Of a DNA stretch of 64,000 nucleotides, positions 4,896-59,045 are shown piece after piece. The notes under the pieces were generated by a model. It ran no database searches and had not been told where the DNA came from. It was given only the letters and a program-made list of their open reading frames with translations. Origin of the DNA: Minisyncoccota bacterium. Its GTDB lineage: Bacteria; Patescibacteriota; Minisyncoccia; Phycocordibacterales; Phycocordibacteraceae. Every line of letters starts with the position of its first letter. Positions within the stretch are counted from its first letter, which is position 1. A program made the translations under genes and the position numbers. Where the stretch lies: NCBI GenBank assembly GCA_036405415.1, contig DASWXP010000002.1:48097-112096 (forward strand), read 5' to 3'.

Positions 4896-6947
4896 CTACG
4901 CGATCTCAGGGATCGCTTCCATAAGCTCGGCGAGCCCAGCAGGCTTCACGAGGAACCCGTCGAATCCGGCCGCTTTTCCGCGGGCCTTCACGTCGTCCGT
5001 GCTGAATCCCGTGAGGGCGATGAGGCGGCCTGTGTAGCCTTGCGCGCGCAGGGTCTCAGCTACCGAATAGCCGTCGCGGTCCGGAAGCCCGAGATCAAGC
5101 AGCGCTATGTCAGGACGCTCGTTGAGCGCCTGTTCGATGGCCTGTCCCGCGTCATACGCGTAGGCGACGCGCGCGCCGCGCAGCGACAGAAGCTTCCCGA
5201 TGCCCCAGGCTGCCGCGTCATTATCATCGACGACGAGCACCGAAGGCCCGGAGTCTCGCGCCGCAGCCTTGATGCTGGTCTCGGTTCGGTCGGCCGTACC
5301 CGCCGCATGCTCGGTAAGCGGAAGGCGCACCACGAACCGGCTGCCGAGCCCTGCGCCGTCGCTCAGGACGCTGATGGAACCTTCGTGCGCGGTGACGAAG
5401 TTATGCACGAGCGCGAGCCCGATACCGAGCCCCTTGCGGGTGCGCGAGCCCTGCTCGATCTGCTGGAAGGGGAGGAATATCGTATCGAGCATCTCCGGAG
5501 GGATGCCGATCCCCGTATCCTTCACCGTTATCTCGGCAGAGTCGCCGTCCTTGCGCAGCGTAATATCGATCGGGTCCCCGGGGTCTGAATACTTCGAGGC
5601 GTTCGTTATGAGGTTCGTGAACACCTGCTCGAGGCGCACCGGATCTCCCATCACGTAGAGCGCTTCTTTGGGGGCTCGGATCGAGACGGTCTGGTGCCGG
5701 TCCTCGATGTAGGTCTCGGTTGAGACAATCGCCCTGCGCAGAATCGCGTTCAGTTCCGTAGGCTCCTTCTTGAGAGAGAGCTTGCCCTCGGAGATGCGGG
5801 AGATATCGAGGAGGTCATCGAGCAGATGGCGCACGGTCTGCATGCGCTCCTCCATCATGATGAGCGTCTCCTGGTCCTCGTGATCCTTGGCGCGCGTCTC
5901 CTTCATGAGCTCGATCGCGCTTACGACAGGCGCAAGCGGATTCCGGAGCTCGTGCGCGAGGATGGCGATGAAGTCGTTCTTCGCGCGGGACTCGGACGAG
6001 ATGCGCGAGACCGCGTTCTCCAAGGTCGCCATCTGCGAGCGGATGAGCCGTGTGGCGATGCGGCGGTCTTCCTGGAGCGAAGAGATGATGAGGAAGATGC
6101 CTGAGAGCACGATCATGAACGTTTCCACCTGGAAGATGCGATCGTTAAGTGGCTGCGGATCCGGCGTTATATAGAGGCTTGAAAGCGCCGCGAGCGCGAC
6201 CAGGATGAGCGCGAGCGTGGTGAAGCGCGGACGAAGACGGAGCGCTATCCAGAAGAGCGGGATGAAAAGGGTGTAGACGAGCGGGAACGGACCGATGGCG
6301 GTGATATCCGCGATGAATATCGCGTAGCATACGCTAAGAAGCCCGCCGAAAACGATGAGCGTCTCGAGCGTCTCAGGGAGGGATCGCGCGAACCGCGGCT
6401 TCGCGAACCAGCGCAAGATGAACGGGACGATAACCACGAAGCAGAACACCGTGCCCGTATACCAGTAGAGCCAGGACAGGCTCCCGAACGGCTCGCCCGT
6501 AACGAAAGTATTGAGCCAGCGCGTAAAGACGCCGAAAGTCGGCACTACCACCGACGAGATCATGGCTGCGGCGAGCGTGATCAAGATGTCGCGCGTGCGC
6601 CTGAATAAGGGGTCGACGCCGGCACGCCTGAGGATGGTCGCGCCGAACCCGGCCTGAAGCGCCTGGGCGAATGGCATGATAAGGAGGTACACGAGCGGAG
6701 ACCCGAGCACGAAGTTGCTGATCAGTGATGCGATGTACACCACGGGCCAGATGCGCGCGCCCGCGAAGAAGAGTACTGATACGGCGATCGCGGATGCAGG
6801 GAAGAGGATGGCTATGTTCGGCAGGAACATCGATGAAACCCAGAGCGCGCCGAGGTATAGGAAAAAGAGGAGGAGACCGATCTTCCAATGGCGACGTACC
6901 GCGCGAAGGAGGAAGGAAATCATCGAAGTCTTGGTCATGGCGGGCAC
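4896..6947 (-). CDS. hybrid sensor histidine kinase (multi-TM sensor, HisKA, HATPase_c, C-terminal receiver)
   Basis: About 8 N-terminal TM helices. H-box AHELRNPLAPV. G-boxes DTGIGIP and GLGIGL. Receiver VLVVDDN...LLDLGLPDRDGY...LVKPAGL. Confidence 0.85.
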   Translation of the reverse strand: MPAMTKTSMISFLLRAVRRHWKIGLLLFFLYLGALWVSSMFLPNIAILFPASAIAVSVLFFAGARIWPVVYIASLISNFVLGSPLVYLLIMPFAQALQAGFGATILRRAGVDPLFRRTRDILITLAAAMISSVVVPTFGVFTRWLNTFVTGEPFGSLSWLYWYTGTVFCFVVIVPFILRWFAKPRFARSLPETLETLIVFGGLLSVCYAIFIADITAIGPFPLVYTLFIPLFWIALRLRPRFTTLALILVALAALSSLYITPDPQPLNDRIFQVETFMIVLSGIFLIISSLQEDRRIATRLIRSQMATLENAVSRISSESRAKNDFIAILAHELRNPLAPVVSAIELMKETRAKDHEDQETLIMMEERMQTVRHLLDDLLDISRISEGKLSLKKEPTELNAILRRAIVSTETYIEDRHQTVSIRAPKEALYVMGDPVRLEQVFTNLITNASKYSDPGDPIDITLRKDGDSAEITVKDTGIGIPPEMLDTIFLPFQQIEQGSRTRKGLGIGLALVHNFVTAHEGSISVLSDGAGLGSRFVVRLPLTEHAAGTADRTETSIKAAARDSGPSVLVVDDNDAAAWGIGKLLSLRGARVAYAYDAGQAIEQALNERPDIALLDLGLPDRDGYSVAETLRAQGYTGRLIALTGFSTDDVKARGKAAGFDGFLVKPAGLAELMEAIPEIA

Positions 6948-48388: not shown

Positions 48389-48547
48389 ATGGGACTCGAC
48401 TACAGCCAGAAGCGCCTCGTGTCGATGGCTCGGCACACGAAAGGGAACAGTAAGCACGCGAAGCGTCTCAGGCTCTATGCCTTCCTTACGGGCATCATGG
48501 GTCTTCTGATATCCCTCGTGCAGCTCTATGTCGTTGCCACGCGCTAG
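48389..48547 (+). CDS. small single-TM protein (52 aa), paralog A
   Basis: A basic N-terminus (KRL...KHAKRLRLYAF) then LTGIMGLLISLVQLYVV. Absent from the track because it is under 60 aa. Confidence 0.4.
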   Translation: MGLDYSQKRLVSMARHTKGNSKHAKRLRLYAFLTGIMGLLISLVQLYVVATR

Positions 48548-48569
48548 CGCGTGGTATCCTCTTAGGCAT

Positions 48570-48695
48570 ATGGCACGGAGCAGGAAGCGCGCTAAGAAAG
48601 GAAAGTTCGAGCTCGAGGTCTACGCGTTCTGGACCGGATTCGCGAGCACGCTCATAAGCCTTCTTCACGTCATCCTCATGGCGACAAAGGGATAG
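48570..48695 (+). CDS. small single-TM protein (41 aa), paralog B
   Basis: MARSRKRAKKGKFELEVYAFWTGFASTLISLLHVILM shares the pattern of paralog A. Confidence 0.4.
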   Translation: MARSRKRAKKGKFELEVYAFWTGFASTLISLLHVILMATKG

Positions 48696-48698
48696 TAG

Positions 48699-48911
48699 AT
48701 GCGACGCATGAAGCATCTCTACAGCATCACGAAACCGCAGCTTATTACGCTATGGGTGTTCGGTGGCGTGGCTACGTTGTGGGCGATTGATAAGGCGACG
48801 TACCTGCCGTACTCGTCATCGTTCACGTTCACCGAGTTTGTCGGTTGGGTTACGCCGCTCATACTTTTCCTCTATACGTTCGGATGGTGGGAGAAGCAGA
48901 AGAAGAAATAG
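48699..48911 (+). CDS. small membrane protein (2 TM, 70 aa)
   Basis: It starts right after the double stop TAGTAG of the previous small ORF. Confidence 0.45.
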   Translation: MRRMKHLYSITKPQLITLWVFGGVATLWAIDKATYLPYSSSFTFTEFVGWVTPLILFLYTFGWWEKQKKK

Positions 48912-49363: not shown

Positions 49364-49506
49364 GCTCCAATGTTCAGATGAATACTGTGTGGATTATACC
49401 ATGAGAAATTACGATTAGGAAGTATGTGATTAGACAACATAAGTTAAGGGGTGGGGAAGCGAGGACTTTATTTTGTCTTTATTACTGTGAGGTAGGATTT
49501 GGGTAT

Positions 49507-50115
49507 ATGGAACTAGACCCACCAGTAATCCAGGCGCTCATTATAGCGACCACCACTTCTACTAACGATCTGCAAGTTCAAACGGCACTTTTGACCGGTT
49601 CATTTATAGTGCTCGGCGCTGCGGTTTCAGCACTTGCCACGTATTTAACGATGAAGCATCAGCAAGTTGCTGCAAACAAAGCTGCATCAGATCAACGTCT
49701 TTTTGATGCGCGTCGTATCGCGTACGGAGATGCGTTCTCGGTGATCAGTTTTTCAATCAATGAGCGGAATAACGGTCGAAGATATCCTGAACGTTCTACT
49801 GACCCAAGCAATAGAGAAGCAAATGATCTGATGGCACGACTATCCCTTCTATCATCTCAAGAAATGTCAGAACCATTAAGGCTTATGTTTGGTTACTTAG
49901 CCAGTCTAATTCCAGATACTGATGAAGCTAAAAAGCAAGACATGATTCAAGGGACTCTTTTATGGCAGAATCTGTTGTATGCCATGCGAGAAGATTTGCA
50001 TGGAGACGGCACTTTTTTACCAAATATTGTCCCTACTCCAGAGGGAGAGACCGTAAGGGAGACTGAAGACTCTACGGTGGTAACTGAGTCGTCGAGTCGA
50101 GATACCGGCCATTAA
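49507..50115 (+). CDS. membrane-anchored hypothetical protein (first gene of the AT-richer island)
   Basis: Its composition drops relative to the flanks. A TM (LLTGSFIVLGAAVSALATYL) is followed by a soluble domain. Confidence 0.45.
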   Translation: MELDPPVIQALIIATTTSTNDLQVQTALLTGSFIVLGAAVSALATYLTMKHQQVAANKAASDQRLFDARRIAYGDAFSVISFSINERNNGRRYPERSTDPSNREANDLMARLSLLSSQEMSEPLRLMFGYLASLIPDTDEAKKQDMIQGTLLWQNLLYAMREDLHGDGTFLPNIVPTPEGETVRETEDSTVVTESSSRDTGH

Positions 50116-50144
50116 AAATTCCCAATCTTTCCAAATTGTAGACA

Positions 50145-50654
50145 GGGAAGTGGCCTCTCCGGAGGCTTCTTCCTTTACCTCTAAAAGCACTCCCCCGGAC
50201 TCAATTTCGGGATTTCGGGGAAGTGGTCCGAAATGCTCTATTTCGCGCGCACGAAACTTTCGCAGGAGAAATCCCAGAGAGCCGGCCGGTGAGAGATTCC
50301 TATAAAAGAGTCTAAAGGGAAGTAGAGGAGTCTATGAATCGGAAGCCTTAAATGAACATTTTCAGCATTCCCGGATTCTATAGAAGTACTTCGTACAATA
50401 TATCTTTTACGCAGCACTTCTACAATACAGCGAGAAAGTGGGCCGTATTCGTTCTCGTGATGATCTCGGTCTCCGCTCGTCTAAGTAGATATATGTTCCG
50501 TACAAATGTCATTCAACCTATATGGAATCACATCTATCTACTCCTAAATCATCATCTAAAATATCCTCAGTGACACTTCCCCGATTACTGATAATGAGCC
50601 GGGGGAGTTATCTGTAAAAGAGAAAGAGTAGCCCCTCCCAGAAGTTACTTCCCT
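50145..50654. repeat. quartet of GGGAAGT(G) motifs: two direct (50145, 50217) and two inverted (50574, 50647), spaced about 72 nt within each pair
   Basis: agGGAAGTGGcc and gGGGAAGTGGtcc on plus. cACTTCCCCg and tACTTCCCTg are their reverse complements. They enclose an AT-rich 350-nt core. Confidence 0.5.
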
Positions 50655-50671
50655 GCCAAATCAAGCATTGA

Positions 50672-50818
50672 AGTCTTTGTAGTTCAGTCTCCCCAGGTCT
50701 TTCAGACTCTTGAACTGGTCCTTGAGAATAACGGTGAGGAATCTATTGAATCTTAGGTAGAAGCACAGTAGGATCCTGAGCAGCTTCTTAGGGATGCTCT
50801 TGCCTTATCGCAGCACCG
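50672..50818 (-). pseudogene. possible transposase C-terminal remnant (no start codon)
   Basis: The open frame GKSIPKKLLRILLCFYLRFNRFLTVILKDQFKSLKDLGRLNYKDFNA* resembles the R...(I/V)(E/I)..F..LK...GL C-terminal motif of IS4/IS5 DDE transposases. Weak call. Confidence 0.25.
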
Positions 50819-50853
50819 GGGCGCCCCATACAGAGAGCACTTCACCCAAGAAG

Positions 50854-51159
50854 ATGCGCATCGAGAATCGTGCCCAGAAGAAGCGCATTGCCAAGTTAGA
50901 AGACTACAGATGTCAGATCTGTAACTGGTCTATGACCTGGACTAACAAGAAAGGAAAAAGCTTCCAGCGTATAGACGTGGATCACATTATCGATAAATCC
51001 AAAGGCGGTGGAGAAGAAGCTTCCAACCTATGGGTGCTCTGCCCTAATTGCCACGTAAAGAAGACACTCGGTGTTATTACGATTGATCCAAAGAAGAAAT
51101 TGATTCAGGAGAATGGCCAGAAGATTGAGCTGCACCATGACTCTCATTTGGGGTGGTAG
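50854..51159 (+). CDS. HNH endonuclease
   Basis: CQICNW...DVDHIIDKSKGG...NLWVLCPNCH matches the HNH motif with a Zn-binding CxxC pair. Confidence 0.75.
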   Translation: MRIENRAQKKRIAKLEDYRCQICNWSMTWTNKKGKSFQRIDVDHIIDKSKGGGEEASNLWVLCPNCHVKKTLGVITIDPKKKLIQENGQKIELHHDSHLGW

Positions 51160-51493
51160 TCTTTGGCCACTTTCGTTTAATAGTCTCCTTGCCAAGTTTC
51201 CATAAATCCAATAGCAACGCGCCACTCCAGCCAAGTAATATTCCAATTAAAACCAAAGCCGGAGTTCCTATCATTGGTAGGTAAAGTACCTTTTCAAGTT
51301 GTTCAGGTCTGTCCTCCTTTACCATCTCAACAAAAATCATAAAAACAGGTATTCCCCAAATGGCACTGAATGCTGCATATTCAAACTCTCCAATTTTTTC
51401 TTCGCGCTTTCCTGCAAAGAATCTGTAACTGCAAACAACGCTAAAACCTCCCAAAACTATAAGAAAGTAGTTTAGGACATTTGGGTCGATCAT
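51077..51493 (-). CDS. hypothetical membrane protein (4 TM)
   Basis: Its 3' end overlaps the HNH gene convergently. The exact end is uncertain. Confidence 0.4.
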   Translation of the reverse strand: MIDPNVLNYFLIVLGGFSVVCSYRFFAGKREEKIGEFEYAAFSAIWGIPVFMIFVEMVKEDRPEQLEKVLYLPMIGTPALVLIGILLGWSGALLLDLWKLGKETIKRKWPKTTTPNESHGAAQSSGHSPESISSLDQS

Positions 51494-51494
51494 A

Positions 51495-52094
51495 TTACCT
51501 GTTGGTTGAGAAGTTGGTCACATTTATATCGTGACCCAACTTATTCTTTTTAGATAGCAGGTACTTCTCAATTTCTGGTGAGATTTCTAGATTGAGTTGA
51601 ATTCTCTCACTTACTTCAAAACCCTCATCAGTAAGCTGCTTTAGCTTCCTGGGGTTGTTGCTAATTAATCTAACTGGACTCGCCAAATGTAATTCTTTAA
51701 GGGCATTAATTGCTCCTGAGTAATCTCGAGGATCAAGATCCAAGCCCAACAACTCAAAAGCATCATGCGTATCGATGTCATGTATTCGTTGCACTTCCAT
51801 TGCTTCAATCTTCCTTTCAATACCGTGACCTCTCCCTTCCTGATACAGGTACACCAGAGCACCGCCCTGTTCAGACATTGATTTTAGGCTTTCTTGTAGC
51901 TGGAGATTGCAATCGCAGTCAACAGAACCAAGACTCTCGCTAAATATGCAGGACGAGTGGAGTCGCACCAGTGGATTAGCTACTTTCTCAACGCCCTCTG
52001 TCCAAAGGAGTAAGCCATGGGAATTAGTATCTCCCCAAGACCGGACCATAAAGCTGCCATACTTTGTAGCCAACGTAGTTTGAGGGTTAGTCAT
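51495..52094 (-). CDS. GTP cyclohydrolase II (RibA-like)
   Basis: VRLHSSCIFSESLGSVDCDCNLQL...GGALVYLYQEGRGHGI...RDYSGA...RLISNNPRK aligns with the RibA zinc-binding (CxC) and catalytic motifs. Confidence 0.75.
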   Translation of the reverse strand: MTNPQTTLATKYGSFMVRSWGDTNSHGLLLWTEGVEKVANPLVRLHSSCIFSESLGSVDCDCNLQLQESLKSMSEQGGALVYLYQEGRGHGIERKIEAMEVQRIHDIDTHDAFELLGLDLDPRDYSGAINALKELHLASPVRLISNNPRKLKQLTDEGFEVSERIQLNLEISPEIEKYLLSKKNKLGHDINVTNFSTNR

Positions 52095-52109
52095 GCTGCA
52101 GATTGGAAA

Positions 52110-52877
52110 CTAGCGTTTCTTCCACGTAATTACATCCCCAACTTTAATACCAAGGTTTCGTGCGCCGAGGGCACGTGCCTGACCTATCTCAAAAAGCCCA
52201 AATGAACTTCCAGGAAACATAGCCCACGCTCCTGTATCAAGAGACATCAATCGAGGTTCATACACTACCTCAAGAGCGTTTCCATTAATGGTGACATCAA
52301 ACACATCGCCAACCTCAACAGGTCCTGGGTCTCCGACAAACTTCATCATGCCAAAGTTATCGATGTGAACTATCGTTCCTTCTGCAAGGTCCATTCGCAC
52401 GATGTCTTTAGGATCAATTGCCTTTCCAAGCTCTGAAAGCGGTACGCCGCGTGCGGCGGCGGCGGCCAGTTTCGCCGTCGTGTACTTTCCAGCGAAGGAA
52501 ATAAAGCCTGCCTTATTATGCTCGGTCAGATCATACAGCTCTGAACATCCGTAGTCTCGTGTGAGCCAATCAAAACTTCCCATATTGCGACCTATGAACA
52601 CGATGCCACCTTTCTCTGTGCGGCCAATCACATTCATGGGCCGAACCTTCTCTGCATTGATGGTCGTCATCAAAACACTATTTTCAGGATACGAATCTGC
52701 CATCAATCGAACAGCAAAGTTTGTATTGATTACTGAGAATTCAGGCTGAATAGGAACAATAGGAGGGACAACGACGTTATCCATGCCTGCCACCTCACGA
52801 ATTAGGACCGCGTAGAGCTCATGTGCGGCTATGTCTATACAGTCCGTAATGTTAACCAGGTATTTGGTGTCAGTCAT
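52110..52877 (-). CDS. SAM hydroxide adenosyltransferase-like protein (DUF62; fluorinase/chlorinase superfamily)
   Basis: VHIDNFGMMKFV and GAWAMFPGSSFGLFEIGQARALGARNLGIKVGDVI match conserved C-terminal DUF62 blocks. The N-terminal motif has TDC in place of TDFG. Confidence 0.65.
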   Translation of the reverse strand: MTDTKYLVNITDCIDIAAHELYAVLIREVAGMDNVVVPPIVPIQPEFSVINTNFAVRLMADSYPENSVLMTTINAEKVRPMNVIGRTEKGGIVFIGRNMGSFDWLTRDYGCSELYDLTEHNKAGFISFAGKYTTAKLAAAAARGVPLSELGKAIDPKDIVRMDLAEGTIVHIDNFGMMKFVGDPGPVEVGDVFDVTINGNALEVVYEPRLMSLDTGAWAMFPGSSFGLFEIGQARALGARNLGIKVGDVITWKKR

Positions 52878-52934
52878 TGCCTTAAGAGTAGGCCGGACTT
52901 ATGCATTGTCAACCAAACCCTAGGAATAAGACCG

Positions 52935-53783
52935 CTACTTGCTAAGGGGTCTGGCTATGAACCCAAACTCAAGATTGAATTTTTCGGAAGGATTGCCATC
53001 AAAAAATAGTCTATGCATTTTGCGCGGCTCACTACTATCAAATGACGTGCGTGCATGCAGAGTACGCAAGTTGTCAGTAATAAGTACCTGCCCATGAGTA
53101 AGCCTAAAAGACATGCTGTTCGCACAGTTTTCGAGATAAGTACTAATCTTTTTCATCCCCTCTCGCACCAGCGCATCTTCAGAAGGAATACTTGTTTCGT
53201 CAGATCTGTATCGTATTGATATCCGGTCTCCAACTCTTTGAAGCAGAGCCTGGCACGAATCTTTCCCTGCTCTACTCACACGCAAAGCATTGGGTGCAAA
53301 GAGAGCCCTGGCTACTTCAGCATTATCCTTGACTAGATACTGGTAGATGTCATCACCACTTGCAAGTCGAGTGATGCCACCCTCTGCAGCCGGGGTGTCA
53401 CAGCGAAGCGCTACAGCACGAGGAGGAGTCTGCGCATATGCACCATCTGTATGAAATGAGTGTTCAAGGTTTGAAGTGCCCAAGTAGCCTTGGAAGTCTT
53501 CTGACACTGCGATTTCAGCAATATCATCTTCGTTTGCTCGATCATGCGGCATAGAATTACCGAAAATTTCTTTGAAGCAGAGCAGTTGTTCTCGAGGACT
53601 TTCATCTTGCGAAAACTCTACAACAACGGCCCCGTACCTATTAAAAAGCGTAACGATTTCCTTTGCAGCAGACGGCACGTCTTGAGAAGAACCAACCTTA
53701 ACGAGAATGGATCTCAAGAGAGTGGCTGAATTAAGCACTCCTTGAGTTGGATCTAATTCTCTTTTGCGGCTATTCCAGAACAT
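52935..53783 (-). CDS. TauD/TfdA-family Fe(II)/2-oxoglutarate-dependent dioxygenase
   Basis: HTDGAY (HxD facial-triad motif) and a distal His/Arg (RKMHRLFF) in a jelly-roll fold. Confidence 0.65.
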   Translation of the reverse strand: MFWNSRKRELDPTQGVLNSATLLRSILVKVGSSQDVPSAAKEIVTLFNRYGAVVVEFSQDESPREQLLCFKEIFGNSMPHDRANEDDIAEIAVSEDFQGYLGTSNLEHSFHTDGAYAQTPPRAVALRCDTPAAEGGITRLASGDDIYQYLVKDNAEVARALFAPNALRVSRAGKDSCQALLQRVGDRISIRYRSDETSIPSEDALVREGMKKISTYLENCANSMSFRLTHGQVLITDNLRTLHARTSFDSSEPRKMHRLFFDGNPSEKFNLEFGFIARPLSK

Positions 53784-53880
53784 GATTAACCCATCCTAGC
53801 TCTGCATTACATAAAAAGGAAATAGTCTTAATTTTACAAACCCCTTTTTCGCAGTTACGCTTACGTACACCAATATCGCC

Positions 53881-54873
53881 ATGACCTATAAACACCCTTC
53901 TCAACCTAGACTTAAAGAAGGTGATCTAGTCCGTGTAGTTTCATTTGGGCTTAGTACCAGGGGTATTACTCCTACCCAGCGAGAACTCTGCATTTCAAAT
54001 CTTGCAAGACTAGGACTGCGTGTTTCCTTTGGAAAGCATGTTGACGAGAGTGATGAATTTGACTCTTCGAGTGTTGAGAGTCGCATAGAAGATTTGCACG
54101 ATGCGCTGATTGATCCTGAAGTGAAGTTAGTACTCTCAAGTCTTGGGGGCATGAATGCTGCTCAAATACTGACTTATGTAGACTGGGAACTACTACGTGC
54201 GAATCCAAAGATGTTTTGTGGGTTTTCAGATATGGCGGCGCTCGTAAACGCAATTCACTCTAAAACAGGACTCGTCACCTATAACGGTCCCTTCTTTGGT
54301 ACATTTGGAATGAAGCAAGGACTGGAATACACACTTGAATCATTTGAGAAATGTCTCTTCACCTCTTCTGTATACCCACTTGAGCCGACAGAAACTTGGA
54401 GTGATGACGCGTGGTGGGCAGACCAAGAAAACAGGACATTTAATAATAATCCTGGCCCTACAGTTCTCAGTGAAGGAGAGGCTTCGGGTCGATTAATCGG
54501 AGGTCACCTTACTTCATTTGCTACCCTTTTTGGAACAGAATTTGCTCCAGATTTCTCTGACTCCATAGTAGCTATCGAAGAAAACTCAGAAATTAACCCA
54601 CGATCTTTCGATAGATTATTGCAAAACCTTGTACACCAAAAGGGCTTCAAAGAGGTCAAGGGCCTTCTTATAGGTAGATTTACTTCTCAGAGTGGAGTTA
54701 CTGACGAGATGCTTACTCGAATAGTTAGAACTTATCCTGAGCTTTCAAGTATTCCGGTAATAGTTAATCTCAGTTTCGGACATACCTACCCTCAGGCAAC
54801 TCTACCAATCGGCGGCAAAGTCCATATGGTTGCTAAAGGAGAGCAGCCTTTAGTAAATATCGTTAGCCATTAG
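53881..54873 (+). CDS. LD-carboxypeptidase, peptidase S66 (LdcA / microcin C immunity MccF-like)
   Basis: GFSDMAAL (nucleophile Ser in GxSD), LSFGHTYP (catalytic His) and the conserved Glu region. Confidence 0.7.
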   Translation: MTYKHPSQPRLKEGDLVRVVSFGLSTRGITPTQRELCISNLARLGLRVSFGKHVDESDEFDSSSVESRIEDLHDALIDPEVKLVLSSLGGMNAAQILTYVDWELLRANPKMFCGFSDMAALVNAIHSKTGLVTYNGPFFGTFGMKQGLEYTLESFEKCLFTSSVYPLEPTETWSDDAWWADQENRTFNNNPGPTVLSEGEASGRLIGGHLTSFATLFGTEFAPDFSDSIVAIEENSEINPRSFDRLLQNLVHQKGFKEVKGLLIGRFTSQSGVTDEMLTRIVRTYPELSSIPVIVNLSFGHTYPQATLPIGGKVHMVAKGEQPLVNIVSH

Positions 54874-54887
54874 AGTAAGGAAATCAC

Positions 54888-55277
54888 TTACTCCCCCTTC
54901 ATCCTCGATTCCCTTTTAATCTGCCAATACACTTCCTCGGACCCCGCATCTGTTCCTTCTTCCCTATTCTTAAAAACTTCAGCAGGATACTTGTCACGAA
55001 TCTTCTGGAGTTTTTTCTCGATAATCTCTGCGGTATCAAGTCCAAGCAATACGCTCATATCAAGGCAATAGATTAGGACGTCTGCCAACTCCTTCTTAAT
55101 GGCCTCGATTTTTTCCGTGTCCTCCTTAACTTCTTCAAGACTCGGGTTGGTCCACTGGAACAGTTCCAAAAGCTCGGACGCTTCTATTGAAATAGACTTT
55201 GCGAGATCTCCAGGACGGAGCTGGTCCCAGCCGCGCTCCACAAGATATTGCTTAATTGCGTCCTCCTGTTCCTTCAT
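54888..55277 (-). CDS. MazG-like nucleotide pyrophosphohydrolase
   Basis: EASELLELFQW and ELADVLIYCLDMS, with the EExxE/D metal-binding helices of MazG/dCTPase-like all-alpha NTP-PPases. Confidence 0.8.
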   Translation of the reverse strand: MKEQEDAIKQYLVERGWDQLRPGDLAKSISIEASELLELFQWTNPSLEEVKEDTEKIEAIKKELADVLIYCLDMSVLLGLDTAEIIEKKLQKIRDKYPAEVFKNREEGTDAGSEEVYWQIKRESRMKGE

Positions 55278-55312
55278 ACATACAGCATAGCAAATAGGTA
55301 CAAGGCGGTCTT

Positions 55313-55573
55313 TTAGTCCCGCCTTGCTAGTAGCTCCTTCGCTTCTTCTTCGGTTATGAACTCAAACACCGTGCAGCGGTCAGCCTCCTCGGGAGCACAG
55401 CACCCGCAGGAATAATCGTCTTCCCAAAGGATGTACTCCCCATGATTGTTTCGGAAAAGGTGTTTGCCGTCAGTGTGAAATTCGTACCTCAGGCAATCAC
55501 CACTTTCTGATCCAAGTCTGAACGCGGGATCGTTCCTGCGAGGAACGATAATTCCACAAGTTCCAACTCTCAT
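55313..55573 (-). CDS. hypothetical Cys-rich small protein
   Basis: SCGCC and CT motifs. 86 aa. Confidence 0.35.
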   Translation of the reverse strand: MRVGTCGIIVPRRNDPAFRLGSESGDCLRYEFHTDGKHLFRNNHGEYILWEDDYSCGCCAPEEADRCTVFEFITEEEAKELLARRD

Positions 55574-55584
55574 GTCCTTGCTCT

Positions 55585-55830
55585 CTAATGCACCGAAGGG
55601 ATAGGGAGATTCACATCTCCAGTTTCTCCATCGTGTTCCTCGTCATCAAGATCTGGAACAAAACCCTCGGAGATTTCAGGTTCATGATTAAGCGGCACGA
55701 TAACTGCCACCGAATCTTGCCCACGATCTATCTCGGGTTCGTCATCTGAATGCTCGAGGTCTGGCAGAAAAGGTCTATTCCCCACCTCGGGCTTTGGGGG
55801 CCTTTTTCGTATCTCAGTCTGATACGGCAT
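55585..55830 (-). CDS. hypothetical acidic small protein
   Basis: 81 aa, rich in Asp/Glu/Pro. Confidence 0.3.
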   Translation of the reverse strand: MPYQTEIRKRPPKPEVGNRPFLPDLEHSDDEPEIDRGQDSVAVIVPLNHEPEISEGFVPDLDDEEHDGETGDVNLPIPSVH

Positions 55831-55952
55831 GATCCTGGCTCCGTGTTGATGGGATCTTCCTGCAGCTTACGGTATTAGAATCCTTCTGCAATATGTGCTA
55901 GCGTCTGTCCAGATATGCGGCCAATTGCCGTGACCGTTCTTGGAGGTGGCTC

Positions 55953-56528
55953 ATGCCAACCGTCATTCACACCCTGGACGAGGATCGTGGAGACATGGAA
56001 TTCCTCACGTTCAGATTCCAGCTGCCCTATCTTGAGGGCGAGTGCTATGCATTCGCCATCGCGTTAAACCAGGGTCTTGGCTGGCCTCTGGTTGGACTTA
56101 TGAAGGGCGATGAGATCTGGCACGCAGGCGTTCGCGCGCCTAACGGCAAGATCTACGACGCTCGGGGTCCCCTCACGGAAGAAGCGTTCGGTGGCCACTT
56201 CATGCCGCCGCCGCACGTCATTCGCGAGGTCACCGAGGCCGAGCTGCGTGCTACCCGGCCAATTGCTGACTTCTCGGTCCAGCAAGCGCGGCAGTTCGCT
56301 GAAGTAAACTGGCCTGCGCTGCCCTGGCAGGAAAGCCTGGCTTCAAGAATCGAGGCCTTCGCAAGCGATCTGGAGGTCCTTTCTCGGAAGCATGGCTTCT
56401 GGATTGACGGACCCGTTCCTGCCAGTCTGCCGCTCATCATTCCTGGCGAGGGCGATGAAGGAGGCTACGAGCTTCGGCTCACGGTCGACGGCATGAAGTA
56501 CACCATCAATCGCTACCTGCTCAGGTAA
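55953..56528 (+). CDS. hypothetical protein
   Basis: 191-aa ORF followed by a strong terminator. Confidence 0.45.
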   Translation: MPTVIHTLDEDRGDMEFLTFRFQLPYLEGECYAFAIALNQGLGWPLVGLMKGDEIWHAGVRAPNGKIYDARGPLTEEAFGGHFMPPPHVIREVTEAELRATRPIADFSVQQARQFAEVNWPALPWQESLASRIEAFASDLEVLSRKHGFWIDGPVPASLPLIIPGEGDEGGYELRLTVDGMKYTINRYLLR

Positions 56529-56543
56529 TTCCCTGAGCAAACC

Positions 56544-56577
56544 AAGCCCCCGATTGCGGTCGGGGGCTTGCTCTTTA
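56544..56577. terminator. bidirectional Rho-independent terminator
   Basis: caagcccccga ttgcgg tcgggggcttg followed by ctcttt. Confidence 0.75.
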
Positions 56578-57036
56578 AAAGATCGCGACGGTTTCGTATC
56601 CCGTTACGGGAGGATTGTAGTCAGGCGATGCCTCTTCAAACACTCTGCGCTGCACTAGGTACGCCCCATTTGAAGCCACAACCTTATAGTACCTGCCTAG
56701 CCCTGCGTAATAGCAGATGATCATGGTCGAGTCCGGATACACGTCTGAATCTGGCGGCGTGTACTCGTTACAGCTTCCCTCGACGACGTCCACAATCTTT
56801 CGGGCAGTAGATCCGTCAGAATAGTTCGCGGCGATCGCTATCGCTGTCTGAGGGATACCGTCTTTCTCAGAGGCTGTGTAGTCCCACGAGAATCTCGGAT
56901 TGCCTCTGGGAGCAGTCTCCTCAGCAGGACTCTCTTGGACGGTCTCGACCCGAGATTGGTTTATAAGTCCTATCGCAAACGTGATGAGCGCGATGCCAAG
57001 CACGAGCGCAACAAGTATGCCGAGTATCTTTCCCAT
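56575..57036 (-). CDS. membrane-anchored hypothetical protein
   Basis: MGKILGILVALVLGIALITFAIGL signal anchor. Confidence 0.5.
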   Translation of the reverse strand: MGKILGILVALVLGIALITFAIGLINQSRVETVQESPAEETAPRGNPRFSWDYTASEKDGIPQTAIAIAANYSDGSTARKIVDVVEGSCNEYTPPDSDVYPDSTMIICYYAGLGRYYKVVASNGAYLVQRRVFEEASPDYNPPVTGYETVAIF

Positions 57037-57038
57037 GA

Positions 57039-57941
57039 CTAGTTCTTGTACGCTTCCTCAAGCGTAGCGATATCAATACGCTTCATAGGGAGCATCGCCT
57101 GCGTGATGCGATCGATCTGCTCTTGGGTGCCTTCACGCATCATCTCTTCCATGCGCATCGGAGACGCCTGCCAGGACACGCCGAACTCATCCTTCATCCA
57201 GCCGCATTGCTCAGCCTCAGGTACTGCGGAGAGCTTGTTCATGTAGTAGTCGAGCTCTTCCTGGGAATCGCAGCGGATCAGGAACGAGATGCCTTCCGTA
57301 AAGCCGAACTCGTGCTTGTGTGCACTATCCATCGCGACGAACCACTGCCCTTCGAGCATGAAGTCACTGAACATAACCGTACCTTCCTTGTCCGGCTCCA
57401 TGCCTGCCGGATACCGTGAGATGGCACCCCGCTTCGCGTTCTTAAATACGGATACGTACAGGTCTCCTGCCACTTCTGCTTTGCCGCATACGTCTCCAAC
57501 GAACAGCATGGACGGAATGATGAACGGACGCTCCTCGCCGTCTGGGCTTGTGAGGATGAGCTGCCACGACACGCCAAACTTGTCCTCGATCCATCCGTAC
57601 CATTTGCTGAACGGATATTCGCCGAGCGGCATGAGCGCCTTTCCTCCTTCTGAGAGTTTTGCCCAGAGCGCGTCCAGGTTCGCTTTCGCGTTCGGGTCTC
57701 GGGATGGATCGAAGTTAACCATGAACGAGATGGACGGATTCGTCTTGAAGTACGGTCCTGCGCTTATAGCCATGAACTCGTATCCGGAAAGCGAGAACGT
57801 CAGGAACTCAGCGTCGCTAGACGGCGTGTTGTGGAGCGTCGTTACGTTTGTAATCTTCGAATCAGGAAAGGCTGATACATAGAATTCGGCGGCTTCCTTA
57901 GCCTCTTTATCGAACCAGAGATGCGGGACGATCTTTTGCAT
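57039..57941 (-). CDS. VOC-superfamily protein with tandem PhnB-like (3-demethylubiquinone-9 3-methyltransferase family) domains
   Basis: MQKIVPHLWFDKEAKEAAEFYVSAF is the typical PhnB N-terminus. The second copy is FIIPSMLFVGDVCGKAEVAGDLYVSVF. Confidence 0.7.
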   Translation of the reverse strand: MQKIVPHLWFDKEAKEAAEFYVSAFPDSKITNVTTLHNTPSSDAEFLTFSLSGYEFMAISAGPYFKTNPSISFMVNFDPSRDPNAKANLDALWAKLSEGGKALMPLGEYPFSKWYGWIEDKFGVSWQLILTSPDGEERPFIIPSMLFVGDVCGKAEVAGDLYVSVFKNAKRGAISRYPAGMEPDKEGTVMFSDFMLEGQWFVAMDSAHKHEFGFTEGISFLIRCDSQEELDYYMNKLSAVPEAEQCGWMKDEFGVSWQASPMRMEEMMREGTQEQIDRITQAMLPMKRIDIATLEEAYKN

Positions 57942-58226
57942 GGTATTCAGGATTACTTCCTTCTAGGATACCGCATCGAGCTGAGTTCCGAATGAAGCAA
58001 TATATGCGAAATGCTGTATACTTTAGGGTAGTGGGACCTGAGTATCCCCATCGGCTATTGCAGCCATGCATCCTCGCAAGAGCTGCAGCTTCCTCCATCT
58101 TCGGTAGTTGTCAACGAGGTTAAAGTGACAGCTACTCACGGACCGCTGGTTTCGGCTGGCGGTTTCGCGTTTCTATAGGAAGTAGCGTACTCTATACCCA
58201 TACCCCAGAACGAATCTAATACTCTT

Positions 58227-58340
58227 ATGGTAAAGAACAGCCACGGCGTCAGCTCGAAGAACAATCCGAAGAAGACGCCAAAGACCAAGAAGCGCCTTGC
58301 CGCCAAGCAGGCTCGCAAGGAGGCGCAGCGCGCAAAGTAA
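58227..58340 (+). CDS. candidate 37-aa highly basic small protein
   Basis: MVKNSHGVSSKNNPKKTPKTKKRLAAKQARKEAQRAK ends at a strong terminator. No clear Shine-Dalgarno. Confidence 0.3.
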   Translation: MVKNSHGVSSKNNPKKTPKTKKRLAAKQARKEAQRAK

Positions 58341-58378
58341 AGAAAAAAGCGTCCGGATGTCCGGACGCTCTTTTCTTT
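58341..58378. terminator. bidirectional Rho-independent terminator
   Basis: aaaaaagcgtccgg atgt ccggacgctcttttcttt. Confidence 0.85.
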
Positions 58379-58387
58379 ATGTACCTC

Positions 58388-58870
58388 TTACTTCTTCTTC
58401 GCAGCAGCCTTCTTCGCAGGCACTTTCTTAGCAGCAGCCTTCGCGGCTACCTTCTTCGCAGGCTTCTTCTCTGCGGAAGCCGTGAGTATGGACGAGTACG
58501 CGGCACTCTCAAGCTTCTCGATGAGCGTATCAAGCTTCCCATGCACCTCGGCGAGCTCGCGCTGGAGCGCGCTAATGCGCGGATCGCTTACTGGAGCCTC
58601 TGGCTTCTGGGAGAACGAGCGCTGAGGAGCGAAGCTGCGCTTCTCGAACGGGCGAGACTCGCGGGAATCGTCACGGACGAAGCAGTCCTTGCAGTACACC
58701 GGCTTCTTGCCGTTAGGACGGAATGGCACGCTGCAGCGCGTACCGCACTTGTTGCACTGCGCATCGAACAGCTCCTTCGAATCACCGTTGCGAGAATCGA
58801 ACGGGCGACCCCCGGACTTGGTAAAAGGACGGCGTGGGCCGTTCGAGTAGTTCTTCTTGAAATCAGGCAT
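58388..58870 (-). CDS. zinc-ribbon protein with histone H1-like Lys/Ala-rich C-terminal tail
   Basis: CNKCGTRCSVPF...PVYCKDCF (CxxC...CxxC), a coiled-coil middle and a tail KKPAKKVAAKAAAKKVPAKKAAAKKK. Confidence 0.55.
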   Translation of the reverse strand: MPDFKKNYSNGPRRPFTKSGGRPFDSRNGDSKELFDAQCNKCGTRCSVPFRPNGKKPVYCKDCFVRDDSRESRPFEKRSFAPQRSFSQKPEAPVSDPRISALQRELAEVHGKLDTLIEKLESAAYSSILTASAEKKPAKKVAAKAAAKKVPAKKAAAKKK

Positions 58871-59045
58871 GAGTATTGGTTATATCTCCCGCCCGCGATC
58901 CATAAGATGATGTATTTGCGGCTTCGTTGTGAAATGGTCGGCACGAATGCCGGATAAGCCGCAAATAGCTCATCTCATGGAGACAAACCAAAGATACGTT
59001 TAAAATACTATAACTGGGAGCAAAAGTCAAATACACCCAGCGTTC

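Follow-up and report, generated by a model that had tools for sequence, protein, structure and literature searches.

What does a low-GC block of genes contribute to a bacterium of the candidate phyla radiation (CPR)? The question is raised by positions 49370–55900 of a 64,000-nt stretch of DNA from a Minisyncoccota bacterium (contig DASWXP010000002.1); we call the whole stretch the window and the block the island. Four neighboring island genes (51495–54873), encoding a TauD-like oxygenase, a DUF62-like protein, a GTP cyclohydrolase II-like (GCHII-like) protein and an S66 peptidase, recur together in distant genomes. We put at roughly 0.4 the probability that they are a horizontally acquired cassette for a nucleoside inhibitor of isoleucyl-tRNA synthetase (IleRS) derived from S-adenosylmethionine (SAM) and GTP, with the S66 peptidase providing MccF-type immunity or maturation. 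Such a product would be small, secreted and of the nucleoside type, and would act on an aminoacyl-tRNA synthetase (aaRS), most likely IleRS. The island and the four genes are as follows.

49370..55900, no strand: low-GC genomic island, defined by GC, GC at third codon positions (GC3) and tetranucleotides, and by genes missing at the syntenic site in relatives L095–L110
51495..52094, minus strand: GCHII-like protein, unfused (Pfam GTP_cyclohydro2, 121 bits)
52110..52877, minus strand: DUF62-superfamily protein with the SAM adenosyl-transferase fold (profile search and predicted fold)
52935..53783, minus strand: TauD-family Fe(II)/2-oxoglutarate oxygenase, first gene of the operon (Pfam TauD, 106 bits)
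53881..54873, plus strand: S66 serine peptidase of the MccF-like branch (Pfam Peptidase_S66 plus S66C)

Is the island foreign? Its origin outside the host lineage is firm. The window is a chromosomal stretch (DnaB, cysteinyl-tRNA synthetase, penicillin-binding proteins, a MurA-like gene), and its DnaB, 98% identical to that of a Candidatus Paceibacterota MAG, assigns the host to the Patescibacteria (CPR). Along this stretch the sliding GC profile drops from 0.54–0.64 to 0.39–0.49 between ~49.3 and 55.9 kb; GC is 0.451 in the island versus 0.599 in the remaining window. GC3 is 0.34–0.60 for ten island open reading frames (ORFs) versus 0.59–0.85 for twelve flank genes, and a tetranucleotide L1 distance of 0.41–0.54, against a background of 0.13–0.23, makes the island the sole outlier in 64 kb. 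The AT-richer block at ~49.4–55.9 kb that the original prediction described is borne out by all three measures. The insertion site was compared over 80 metagenomic loci that carry a homologue of the LOG-family gene lying just to the left of the island. Relatives with a 74%–86% identical LOG protein keep the synteny of S41 peptidase, exonuclease, LOG and small-membrane-ORF genes, and none of the island genes is present in them; this includes relatives whose flanking proteins are 83%–86% identical. One close relative (L098) carries at the same site another insert of ~4 kb, with a GC of 0.39–0.47 and genes unrelated to those of the island, just before the conserved 330-aa, sigma-factor and peptidoglycan-binding genes. 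Because the relatives lack the island genes and L098 has a different low-GC insert, we conclude that the island was acquired horizontally, as had been proposed, and that the site, in this Paceibacterota lineage, is a hot spot at which foreign low-GC DNA inserts.

Are the island genes conserved as a set? By word search the DUF62-like protein has 93 homologues; Patescibacteria supply most of them, and Kitasatospora cineracea is a further source. Their neighborhoods were inspected, and ORFs were clustered over 80 species-level GTDB loci (L015–L094). The conserved unit comprises the TauD-like, DUF62-like, GCHII-like and S66 genes only; the TauD gene co-occurs with the DUF62-like gene in 10 loci, and the S66 gene with the cassette in 10. 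In the window, the genes for TauD, the DUF62-like protein, GCHII and a 138-aa membrane protein (TM138) are packed tightly into a single minus-strand operon, 57, 15 and 1 bp apart, and the S66 gene diverges from it across a 97-bp intergenic region. No related locus has a counterpart of TM138, of the HNH and MazG-like proteins, of the 202-aa ORF or of two small ORFs, and we therefore regard these as island cargo. The original prediction had joined all the enzymes and small ORFs into one cassette; the four core genes do co-occur elsewhere, and the HNH, MazG and small-ORF genes do not.

This co-occurrence is firm, and the co-occurring loci differ by 20%–55% in protein sequence. The most informative arrangement, at L179, reads ArgRS, then TauD, DUF62-like, GCHII (193 aa, unfused), S66 and an IleRS with an inserted His_Phos_1 domain, then RecO; its DUF62-like protein is 78% and its GCHII 56% identical to those of the window. 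GC3 is 0.36–0.49 in the four cassette genes and 0.55 in the IleRS gene, below the 0.68–0.91 of the GC-rich host, so that L179 is a second, independent low-GC island whose IleRS appears to have been acquired together with the cassette. At L010/L016, L017 and L018 the DUF62-like, TauD, IleRS and S66 genes accompany a GCHII fused to a HAD phosphatase (the HAD identity comes from a match to 2pke, E 5e-20), with an ABC transporter directly upstream at L010/L016. Partial sets are found at L012 and L021. L013/L025 and L046 hold S66, GCHII-HAD, P-loop, DUF62-like and PrpD genes, with an ATP-grasp gene as well at L013/L025, and L175 holds TauD, a histidine phosphatase, a P-loop kinase, NUDIX-HAD, a major facilitator superfamily (MFS) transporter and the DUF62-like gene. 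NUDIX-HAD occurs there where the window has the MazG-like protein, of which it is a possible functional analogue. At L019, IleRS adjoins the DUF62-like gene alone. In Kitasatospora cineracea, HAD, GCHII, DUF62-like (55% identical to the window protein; GCHII, 46%) and alpha/beta-hydrolase genes are followed by a C domain, a 1056-aa IleRS, MbtH-A-PCP, an MFS transporter and a multimodular nonribosomal peptide synthetase (NRPS), which has the look of a typical biosynthetic cluster that includes a copy of its own target. The longest contigs of at least six of the 15 TauD homologues have the same size as that of a clade-8 DUF62-like protein, and these pairs probably share contigs.

Several further observations concern these loci. 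The IleRS at L019:4677–8105 and L179:11552–14920 carries a His_Phos_1 domain of ~155 aa inserted in its catalytic domain; we know of no description of such an enzyme. P0214, a JGI contig of 1466 bp and too short to show gene context, encodes a TauD 92% identical to that of the window, and a closer copy of the island therefore exists elsewhere. In Kutzneria buriramensis (L022; NZ_CP144375.1, 3277156–3297899) a TauD and DUF62-like pair lies near KAS III and a small LanB-like protein (Lant_dehydr_C), of the kind that uses aminoacyl-tRNA, which hints at another amino-acid/tRNA link in actinomycetes. ORF calls in the high-GC actinomycete loci L022 and L023 are crude, with several ORFs lacking a Pfam match, and these contexts are partly resolved. 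Literature searches, of incomplete coverage and thus giving absence of evidence only, turned up no description of the cassette or of the aaRS link described below, in keeping with the original prediction, which knew of no described system with this combination.

What do the four enzymes look like? Domain identities and active-site residues are firm as well; Pfam and NCBIfam matches uphold the HNH, RibA-like, TauD, S66 and MazG calls made from the sequence at the outset. The DUF62 call is closer to the line: the single sequence scores 25.0 bits against the SAM_HAT_N gathering cut-off of 26.3, 1.3 bits under. Structures of DUF62 proteins, SalL and FlA are matched over their full length by a profile built from 36 homologues (E 5e-19 for 2zbu), and the top 40 Foldseek matches of the AlphaFold model (pLDDT 95) are all of the DUF62 superfamily, with a TM score of ~0.8. 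Profile search and predicted fold thus confirm superfamily membership, and the call holds. The protein shares with SalL, FlA and DUF62 enzymes the two-domain fold, the ribose-binding Asp (D12) and the motifs D-x-F-G (here D-N-F-G) and G-S-S...E, although its identity to them is 14%–22%. The catalytic Asp (Asp68) aligns with N74 and the catalytic His (His127) with A129. Among 76 family members, 69 have N at the Asp site and none has D; at the His site G, A or S is found, with E in one member and H in none. N74 falls at the halide-pocket site, occupied by Tyr70 in SalL, Thr80 in FlA and Asp in hydrolases; the second site, Tyr in SalL and His in hydrolases, is taken by a small residue. The absence of the hydrolase His and Asp is shared with the halogenases. 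In the halide pocket (Tyr70 and Gly131 in SalL, Thr80 and Ser158 in FlA) the picture is mixed, with Gly (G130) at the position of SalL G131 but N74 at the Tyr70/Thr80 site. The family also has invariant residues of its own (C13, D15, E20, W104, H171, K179 and R235).

The only acceptors known for SAM adenosyl transfer are fluoride, chloride and hydroxide, and the His-Arg-Asp triad is strictly conserved in SAM hydrolases and absent from halogenases (2023 review, PMC10491745). SalL and FlA clusters include a nucleoside phosphorylase partner, whereas the neighbors of the DUF62-like genes are aaRS, peptidases, kinases and phosphatases; no purine nucleoside phosphorylase of the SalT/FlB type is found among the island proteins (Pfam) or the commonest neighbor families. 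The DUF62-like domain also occurs fused to a HAD phosphatase, which links the enzyme to a phosphatase step, and a fusion to a nucleotidyltransferase domain is weakly indicated. With 64 clusters at 50% identity (E up to 1e-30) among 1.84 billion representatives, the family is rare; it is concentrated in CPR, DPANN and other reduced-genome lineages. Hosts of this triad-less family include CPR bacteria, DPANN archaea, Bacillota, Holosporales, Chlamydiales and actinomycetes.

One pointer to a possible target is the family-wide link to synthetase genes, which we regard as firm. A Trp, Tyr, His-like or Ile synthetase gene lies within 5 kb in 45 of the 80 GTDB loci of the DUF62-like family, compared to about 2.5 (roughly 2–3) expected from gene density. 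Often two or three aaRS paralogues (TrpRS/TyrRS) are present at one locus. When the 141 immediate neighbor genes of family members in 75 species are sorted by Pfam family, the most frequent are tRNA-synt_1b (13), Peptidase_S51 (10), Enolase (7), PPDK_N kinases (6) and tRNA-synt_His-like (5), with methyltransferases, S66, radical SAM enzymes, SARP regulators and a phosphoenolpyruvate (PEP) mutase among the others. DUF62-like clades track the aaRS type and the partner set. The window's clade is the only one with TauD, GCHII, S66, IleRS, PrpD and P-loop partners; other clades have as partners TrpRS or TyrRS together with a PPDK-like kinase and an unknown 263-aa protein, or a HisRS-like protein and S51, or enolase. 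Family members from other phyla lie in evident biosynthetic clusters. PPDK_N/PEP-utilizer kinases recur in L015–L094, as do three conserved but functionally uncharacterized proteins of about 263, 262 and 190 aa.

The GCHII-like protein, aligned with Escherichia coli RibA, retains Arg128, the zinc cysteines 54, 65 and 67 and further conserved residues. At the position of the catalytic Tyr105 the HMMER alignment has Met, and the same Met occurs in the GCHII of L179 and Kitasatospora. This Tyr-to-Met change reportedly marks SCO6655 of S. coelicolor, which is said to stop at the formylated, ring-opened formamidopyrimidine (FAPy) product. The likeness to the SCO6655 type extends to the zinc cysteines, Arg128 and a position outside the riboflavin operon, but the HAD-fused homologues of the sister cassettes differ in appearing to keep Tyr. 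The protein passes the NCBIfam RibA subfamily (153.7 versus a cut-off of 148) and falls below the equivalog TIGR00505 (133.9 versus 205.85). Its gene lies outside any riboflavin operon, next to the DUF62-like and TauD genes, and is missing from the relatives. An ordinary ribA is ruled out by that absence from syntenic relatives, the sub-cut-off equivalog score and the replacement of Tyr105.

In the TauD-like protein the iron triad (H111-x-D113, H243) and the 2-oxoglutarate-binding arginines R254 and R258 are invariant among homologues. The AlphaFold model (pLDDT 88.8, database homologues) has TmpA, BBOX, AsnO, CarC, KDO1 and CAS as its nearest folds; apart from CarC, these are hydroxylases of onium compounds and free amino acids. 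The S66 protein matches the Bacillus anthracis "MccF-like" protein BA_5613 (4e5s) with E 1e-94, Lmo1638 with 1e-84, MccF with 1e-35 and LD-carboxypeptidases with 1e-18 to 1e-23, and its motifs CGFSD (the GxSD serine), IEEN (Glu) and FGHT (His) align with those of the family. These scores place it on the MccF side of the S66 family, closest to the uncharacterized BA_5613/Lmo1638 branch. LdcA was considered and set aside: the score for the NCBIfam equivalog NF008424 is 96.4 against a cut-off of 378, and the gene is missing from syntenic relatives. That these are not ordinary ribA, ldcA and mazG genes in conserved synteny agrees with the original prediction, all three being absent from the relatives and the ribA and ldcA equivalog scores falling below cut-off.

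How might the four enzymes act together? The substrates, the order of the steps, the product and the target are what we infer here. The GCHII-like enzyme would remove pyrophosphate from GTP and open the imidazole ring, with Met in place of Tyr105, as in the variant whose reaction ends at the formylated FAPy nucleotide. In sister cassettes the phosphate would then be removed by a HAD, NUDIX-HAD or histidine phosphatase, either fused or adjacent; the window has no such phosphatase, and its MazG-like protein may act on the nucleotide instead. The DUF62-like protein would bind SAM and move the 5'-deoxyadenosyl group to a halide or to a nucleophile other than water, releasing methionine; the TauD-like enzyme would hydroxylate an amino-acid-like or onium-type intermediate; and the S66 peptidase would cleave an aminoacyl-nucleoside amide bond, either to protect the producer or to mature the product. 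Sister cassettes would add a co-transferred IleRS as a resistant target and an ABC or MFS exporter, both of which the window copy lacks.

Parts of this scheme have precedents. Microcin C and MccF offer one parallel: the island peptidase, with its Ser-His-Glu residues, is nearer MccF than LdcA and lies beside nucleotide-acting enzymes, and the implied target is an aaRS. The cassette differs in having no MccA peptide gene, MccB (ThiF-like) adenylyltransferase, MccD or MccE (Pfam finds none of mccA–E in the island), in having a peptidase of the BA_5613/Lmo1638 branch, and in that its adenosine moiety would derive from SAM, not ATP. Antibiotic clusters with a self-resistant aaRS (mupirocin mupM, albomycin abmK, agrocin 84 agnB2, SB-203207/altemicidin sbz) resemble L179, L016–L018 and Kitasatospora, where an aaRS lies in or with the cassette and exporters are near. 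They differ in having no GCHII, DUF62-like or S66 gene; the window copy, for its part, has no aaRS, and resistance of the neighboring IleRS is putative. In the puromycin pathway, Pur7 and Pur3 lead from a nucleoside triphosphate (NTP) to a nucleoside antibiotic by way of a pyrophosphatase and a phosphatase. The GCHII-HAD, NUDIX-HAD, histidine phosphatase or MazG-like proteins found with the cassette would imply a similar passage from NTP through the monophosphate to the nucleoside, but the enzyme families and base chemistry are different, and the cassette has no aminonucleoside enzymes.

If the inhibitor reading is correct, a minimal-genome CPR bacterium carries a compact, mobile antibiotic and immunity module, and such organisms are usually seen as dependants, not producers. 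The DUF62-like family would then add a fourth reaction type to SAM adenosyl transfer, limited so far to fluoride, chloride and hydroxide (PMC10491745). Its pairing with Trp, Tyr, His-like and Ile synthetase genes offers a prediction open to direct test and a route to new synthetase inhibitors and biocatalysts. A wider generalization is speculative, and we think it a long shot: the DUF62-like proteins would be a new class of SAM-dependent 5'-deoxyadenosyl transferases acting on a larger nucleophile, such as the phosphate group of an amino-alcohol phosphate or hydroxy-amino-acid phosphate produced by a kinase, and giving a stable aminoacyl-adenylate mimic without ATP. Each clade would be paired with the synthetase that is poisoned (Ile, Trp, Tyr or His-like) and with an immunity peptidase (S66 or S51), as a modular weapon widespread in CPR bacteria, DPANN archaea and actinomycetes, of which the window would hold the Ile-type module.

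Several points weigh against an IleRS inhibitor. The window cassette has no amino-acid-ligating enzyme, IleRS or recognized exporter, and alone it may therefore make only a precursor or do something else. The IleRS genes of L019 and L179 sit among housekeeping genes, as seen in 20 kb per genome. An empirical control for the aaRS link gave 0 of 80, but the control loci all belong to one syntenic neighborhood, which makes it weak. The Tyr105 site is not uniform, being apparently Tyr in HAD-fused forms and neither Tyr nor Met in L021. The PPDK-like kinase, APH, nucleotidyltransferase, peptidases and pumps around family members could equally be antibiotic-inactivating.

The last point leads to the chief rival, which we consider unlikely: a resistance or detoxification island that breaks down, instead of producing, an aminoacyl-adenylate-mimic antibiotic from the environment. 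The S66 peptidase would cleave the aminoacyl amide as MccF does, the DUF62-like protein would attack C5' of the adenosine analogue or adenosylate the drug, TauD would oxidize it, and sister cassettes would add a resistant IleRS and pumps. An MccF-type peptidase is indeed present; IleRS, ABC, MFS and EamA genes are neighbors; the window copy has no ligase, IleRS or recognized exporter; and the family's neighbors include types that serve in antibiotic inactivation, among them PPDK_N/PEP-utilizer kinases similar to rifampicin phosphotransferase, S51 and S66 peptidases, APH and NTP_transf_2. SAM and aminoacyl-adenylates are also, by our own reasoning, alike in shape. However, GCHII with HAD, and the PrpD, enolase, KAS III, NRPS, radical SAM, methyltransferase and PEP mutase neighbors look biosynthetic, a GTP ring-opening enzyme has no obvious role against an adenosine analogue, and no DUF62-type resistance enzyme is known (PMC10491745). 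Were the island one of resistance after all, it would represent a new way to inactivate adenylate-mimic antibiotics.

Salvage or metabolite repair in an auxotrophic symbiont is improbable. Here the DUF62-like protein would split SAM or a damaged isomer to adenosine and methionine, GCHII, MazG and phosphatases would process scavenged nucleotides, and S66 would recycle peptides. Canonical DUF62 proteins hydrolyze SAM and (R)-SAM (PMC10491745), NCBIfam NF058624 is a weak match, kinases and phosphatases are partners, MetK lies 5 kb away in L178, and the concentration of the family in reduced-genome lineages noted above would fit. Yet the catalytic Asp and His are missing family-wide, and the cassette is an accessory island missing from close relatives; moreover, salvage leaves unexplained both the actinomycete biosynthetic contexts and a synthetase link that involves Trp, Tyr, His-like and Ile enzymes and not MetRS.

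The original prediction had offered two functions, a peptidyl-nucleoside antibiotic with self-immunity or a nucleotide-depleting antiphage or anti-defense module. The links to IleRS and to an NRPS cluster favor the former. The latter, in which GTP and SAM would be depleted or modified with HNH and MazG as effectors, draws on a mobile island, on HNH and MazG-like proteins being common in phage and defense contexts, and on the existence of SAM-degrading enzymes and NTP-depleting systems. It is very improbable: no PADLOC model matches GCHII, the DUF62-like protein, TauD, S66 or MazG, a scan of 2.9 million viral contigs shows no relative of the DUF62-like protein, the cassette is not accompanied by HNH and MazG elsewhere, and the conserved partners are aaRS genes, not defense genes. 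Equally hard to credit is unrelated cargo lying together by chance and without joint function, which suits the unconserved HNH, MazG and small ORFs but not four core genes that recur across phyla and GC contents in different orders.

The remaining genes of the island are as follows.

49508..50115, plus strand: ORF of 202 aa at the island's left edge, with a single predicted membrane helix (gene call on Logan contig L001; no family match in Pfam or NCBIfam)
50794..51159, plus strand: small stand-alone HNH endonuclease, island cargo (Pfam PF01844, 41 bits)
51077..51493, minus strand: TM138, predicted membrane protein of 138 aa (ORF list), directly after GCHII and overlapping the HNH 3' end
54888..55277, minus strand: MazG-like NTP pyrophosphohydrolase, island cargo (Pfam PF12643, 50.5 bits; PHROG pyrophosphatase)
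55313..55573, minus strand: 86-aa ORF with 6 Cys, upstream of the MazG-like gene (ORF list; also a gene call on Logan contigs)
55585..55830, minus strand: 81-aa acidic ORF, upstream of the MazG-like gene (ORF list; also a gene call on Logan contigs)

The small Cys-rich and acidic ORFs noted at the outset thus exist; neither has a match in Pfam, NCBIfam, PADLOC or PHROG. The same four libraries have none for TM138, nor does tblastn against the related loci. The HNH protein has only generic HNH matches in PADLOC and the PHROGs and no homologue in related loci, and the sole PHROG matches of island proteins are the pyrophosphatase, the generic HNH and one unnamed S66 PHROG. A scan of the island for riboswitch and T-box leaders gave nothing above noise, and a promoter and terminator scan stayed at or below shuffle expectation. 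The exact island protein sequences occur in one set of sequencing runs only.

The borders look plainer than first described. A repeat quartet had been reported there, but TRF and a repeat finder detect no repeats at the borders, and there is no direct repeat of at least 9 bp across the two borders and no target-site duplication. The supposed transposase-like remnant likewise fails to appear, no border ORF having a transposase- or integrase-like Pfam match, and no tRNA gene is near the island. Left of it, at 48389–48911, are three small tandem ORFs (52, 55 and 70 aa), each with a basic N-terminus followed by one membrane helix. The first two are clearly paralogous, and the ORFs may be what was taken for repeats; they are conserved in relatives without the island and hence belong to the core genome.

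Right of the low-GC block, positions 55953–58900 are likewise missing from syntenic relatives, so that the variable region is wider than the block itself. They encode a 191-aa ORF, a 153-aa membrane-anchored ORF, a 300-aa PhnB-like (3-dmu-9_3-mt) protein and a zinc-finger protein. The last (58388–58870, minus strand), of the CxxC type with a Pfam zf_Tbcl_2 match on the Logan gene call, has a Lys/Ala-rich C-terminal tail built from imperfect direct repeats with 15- and 27-bp spacing (58397–58480). At L098:1500–5600, syntenic to ~48.9–59.0 kb of the window, the genes are for an M23-type peptidase, a TolB-like beta-propeller protein and secreted proteins. Far from the island and unrelated to it, 4896–6947 (minus strand) encodes a hybrid histidine kinase that combines a MASE1 membrane sensor with a receiver domain, here in a CPR genome.

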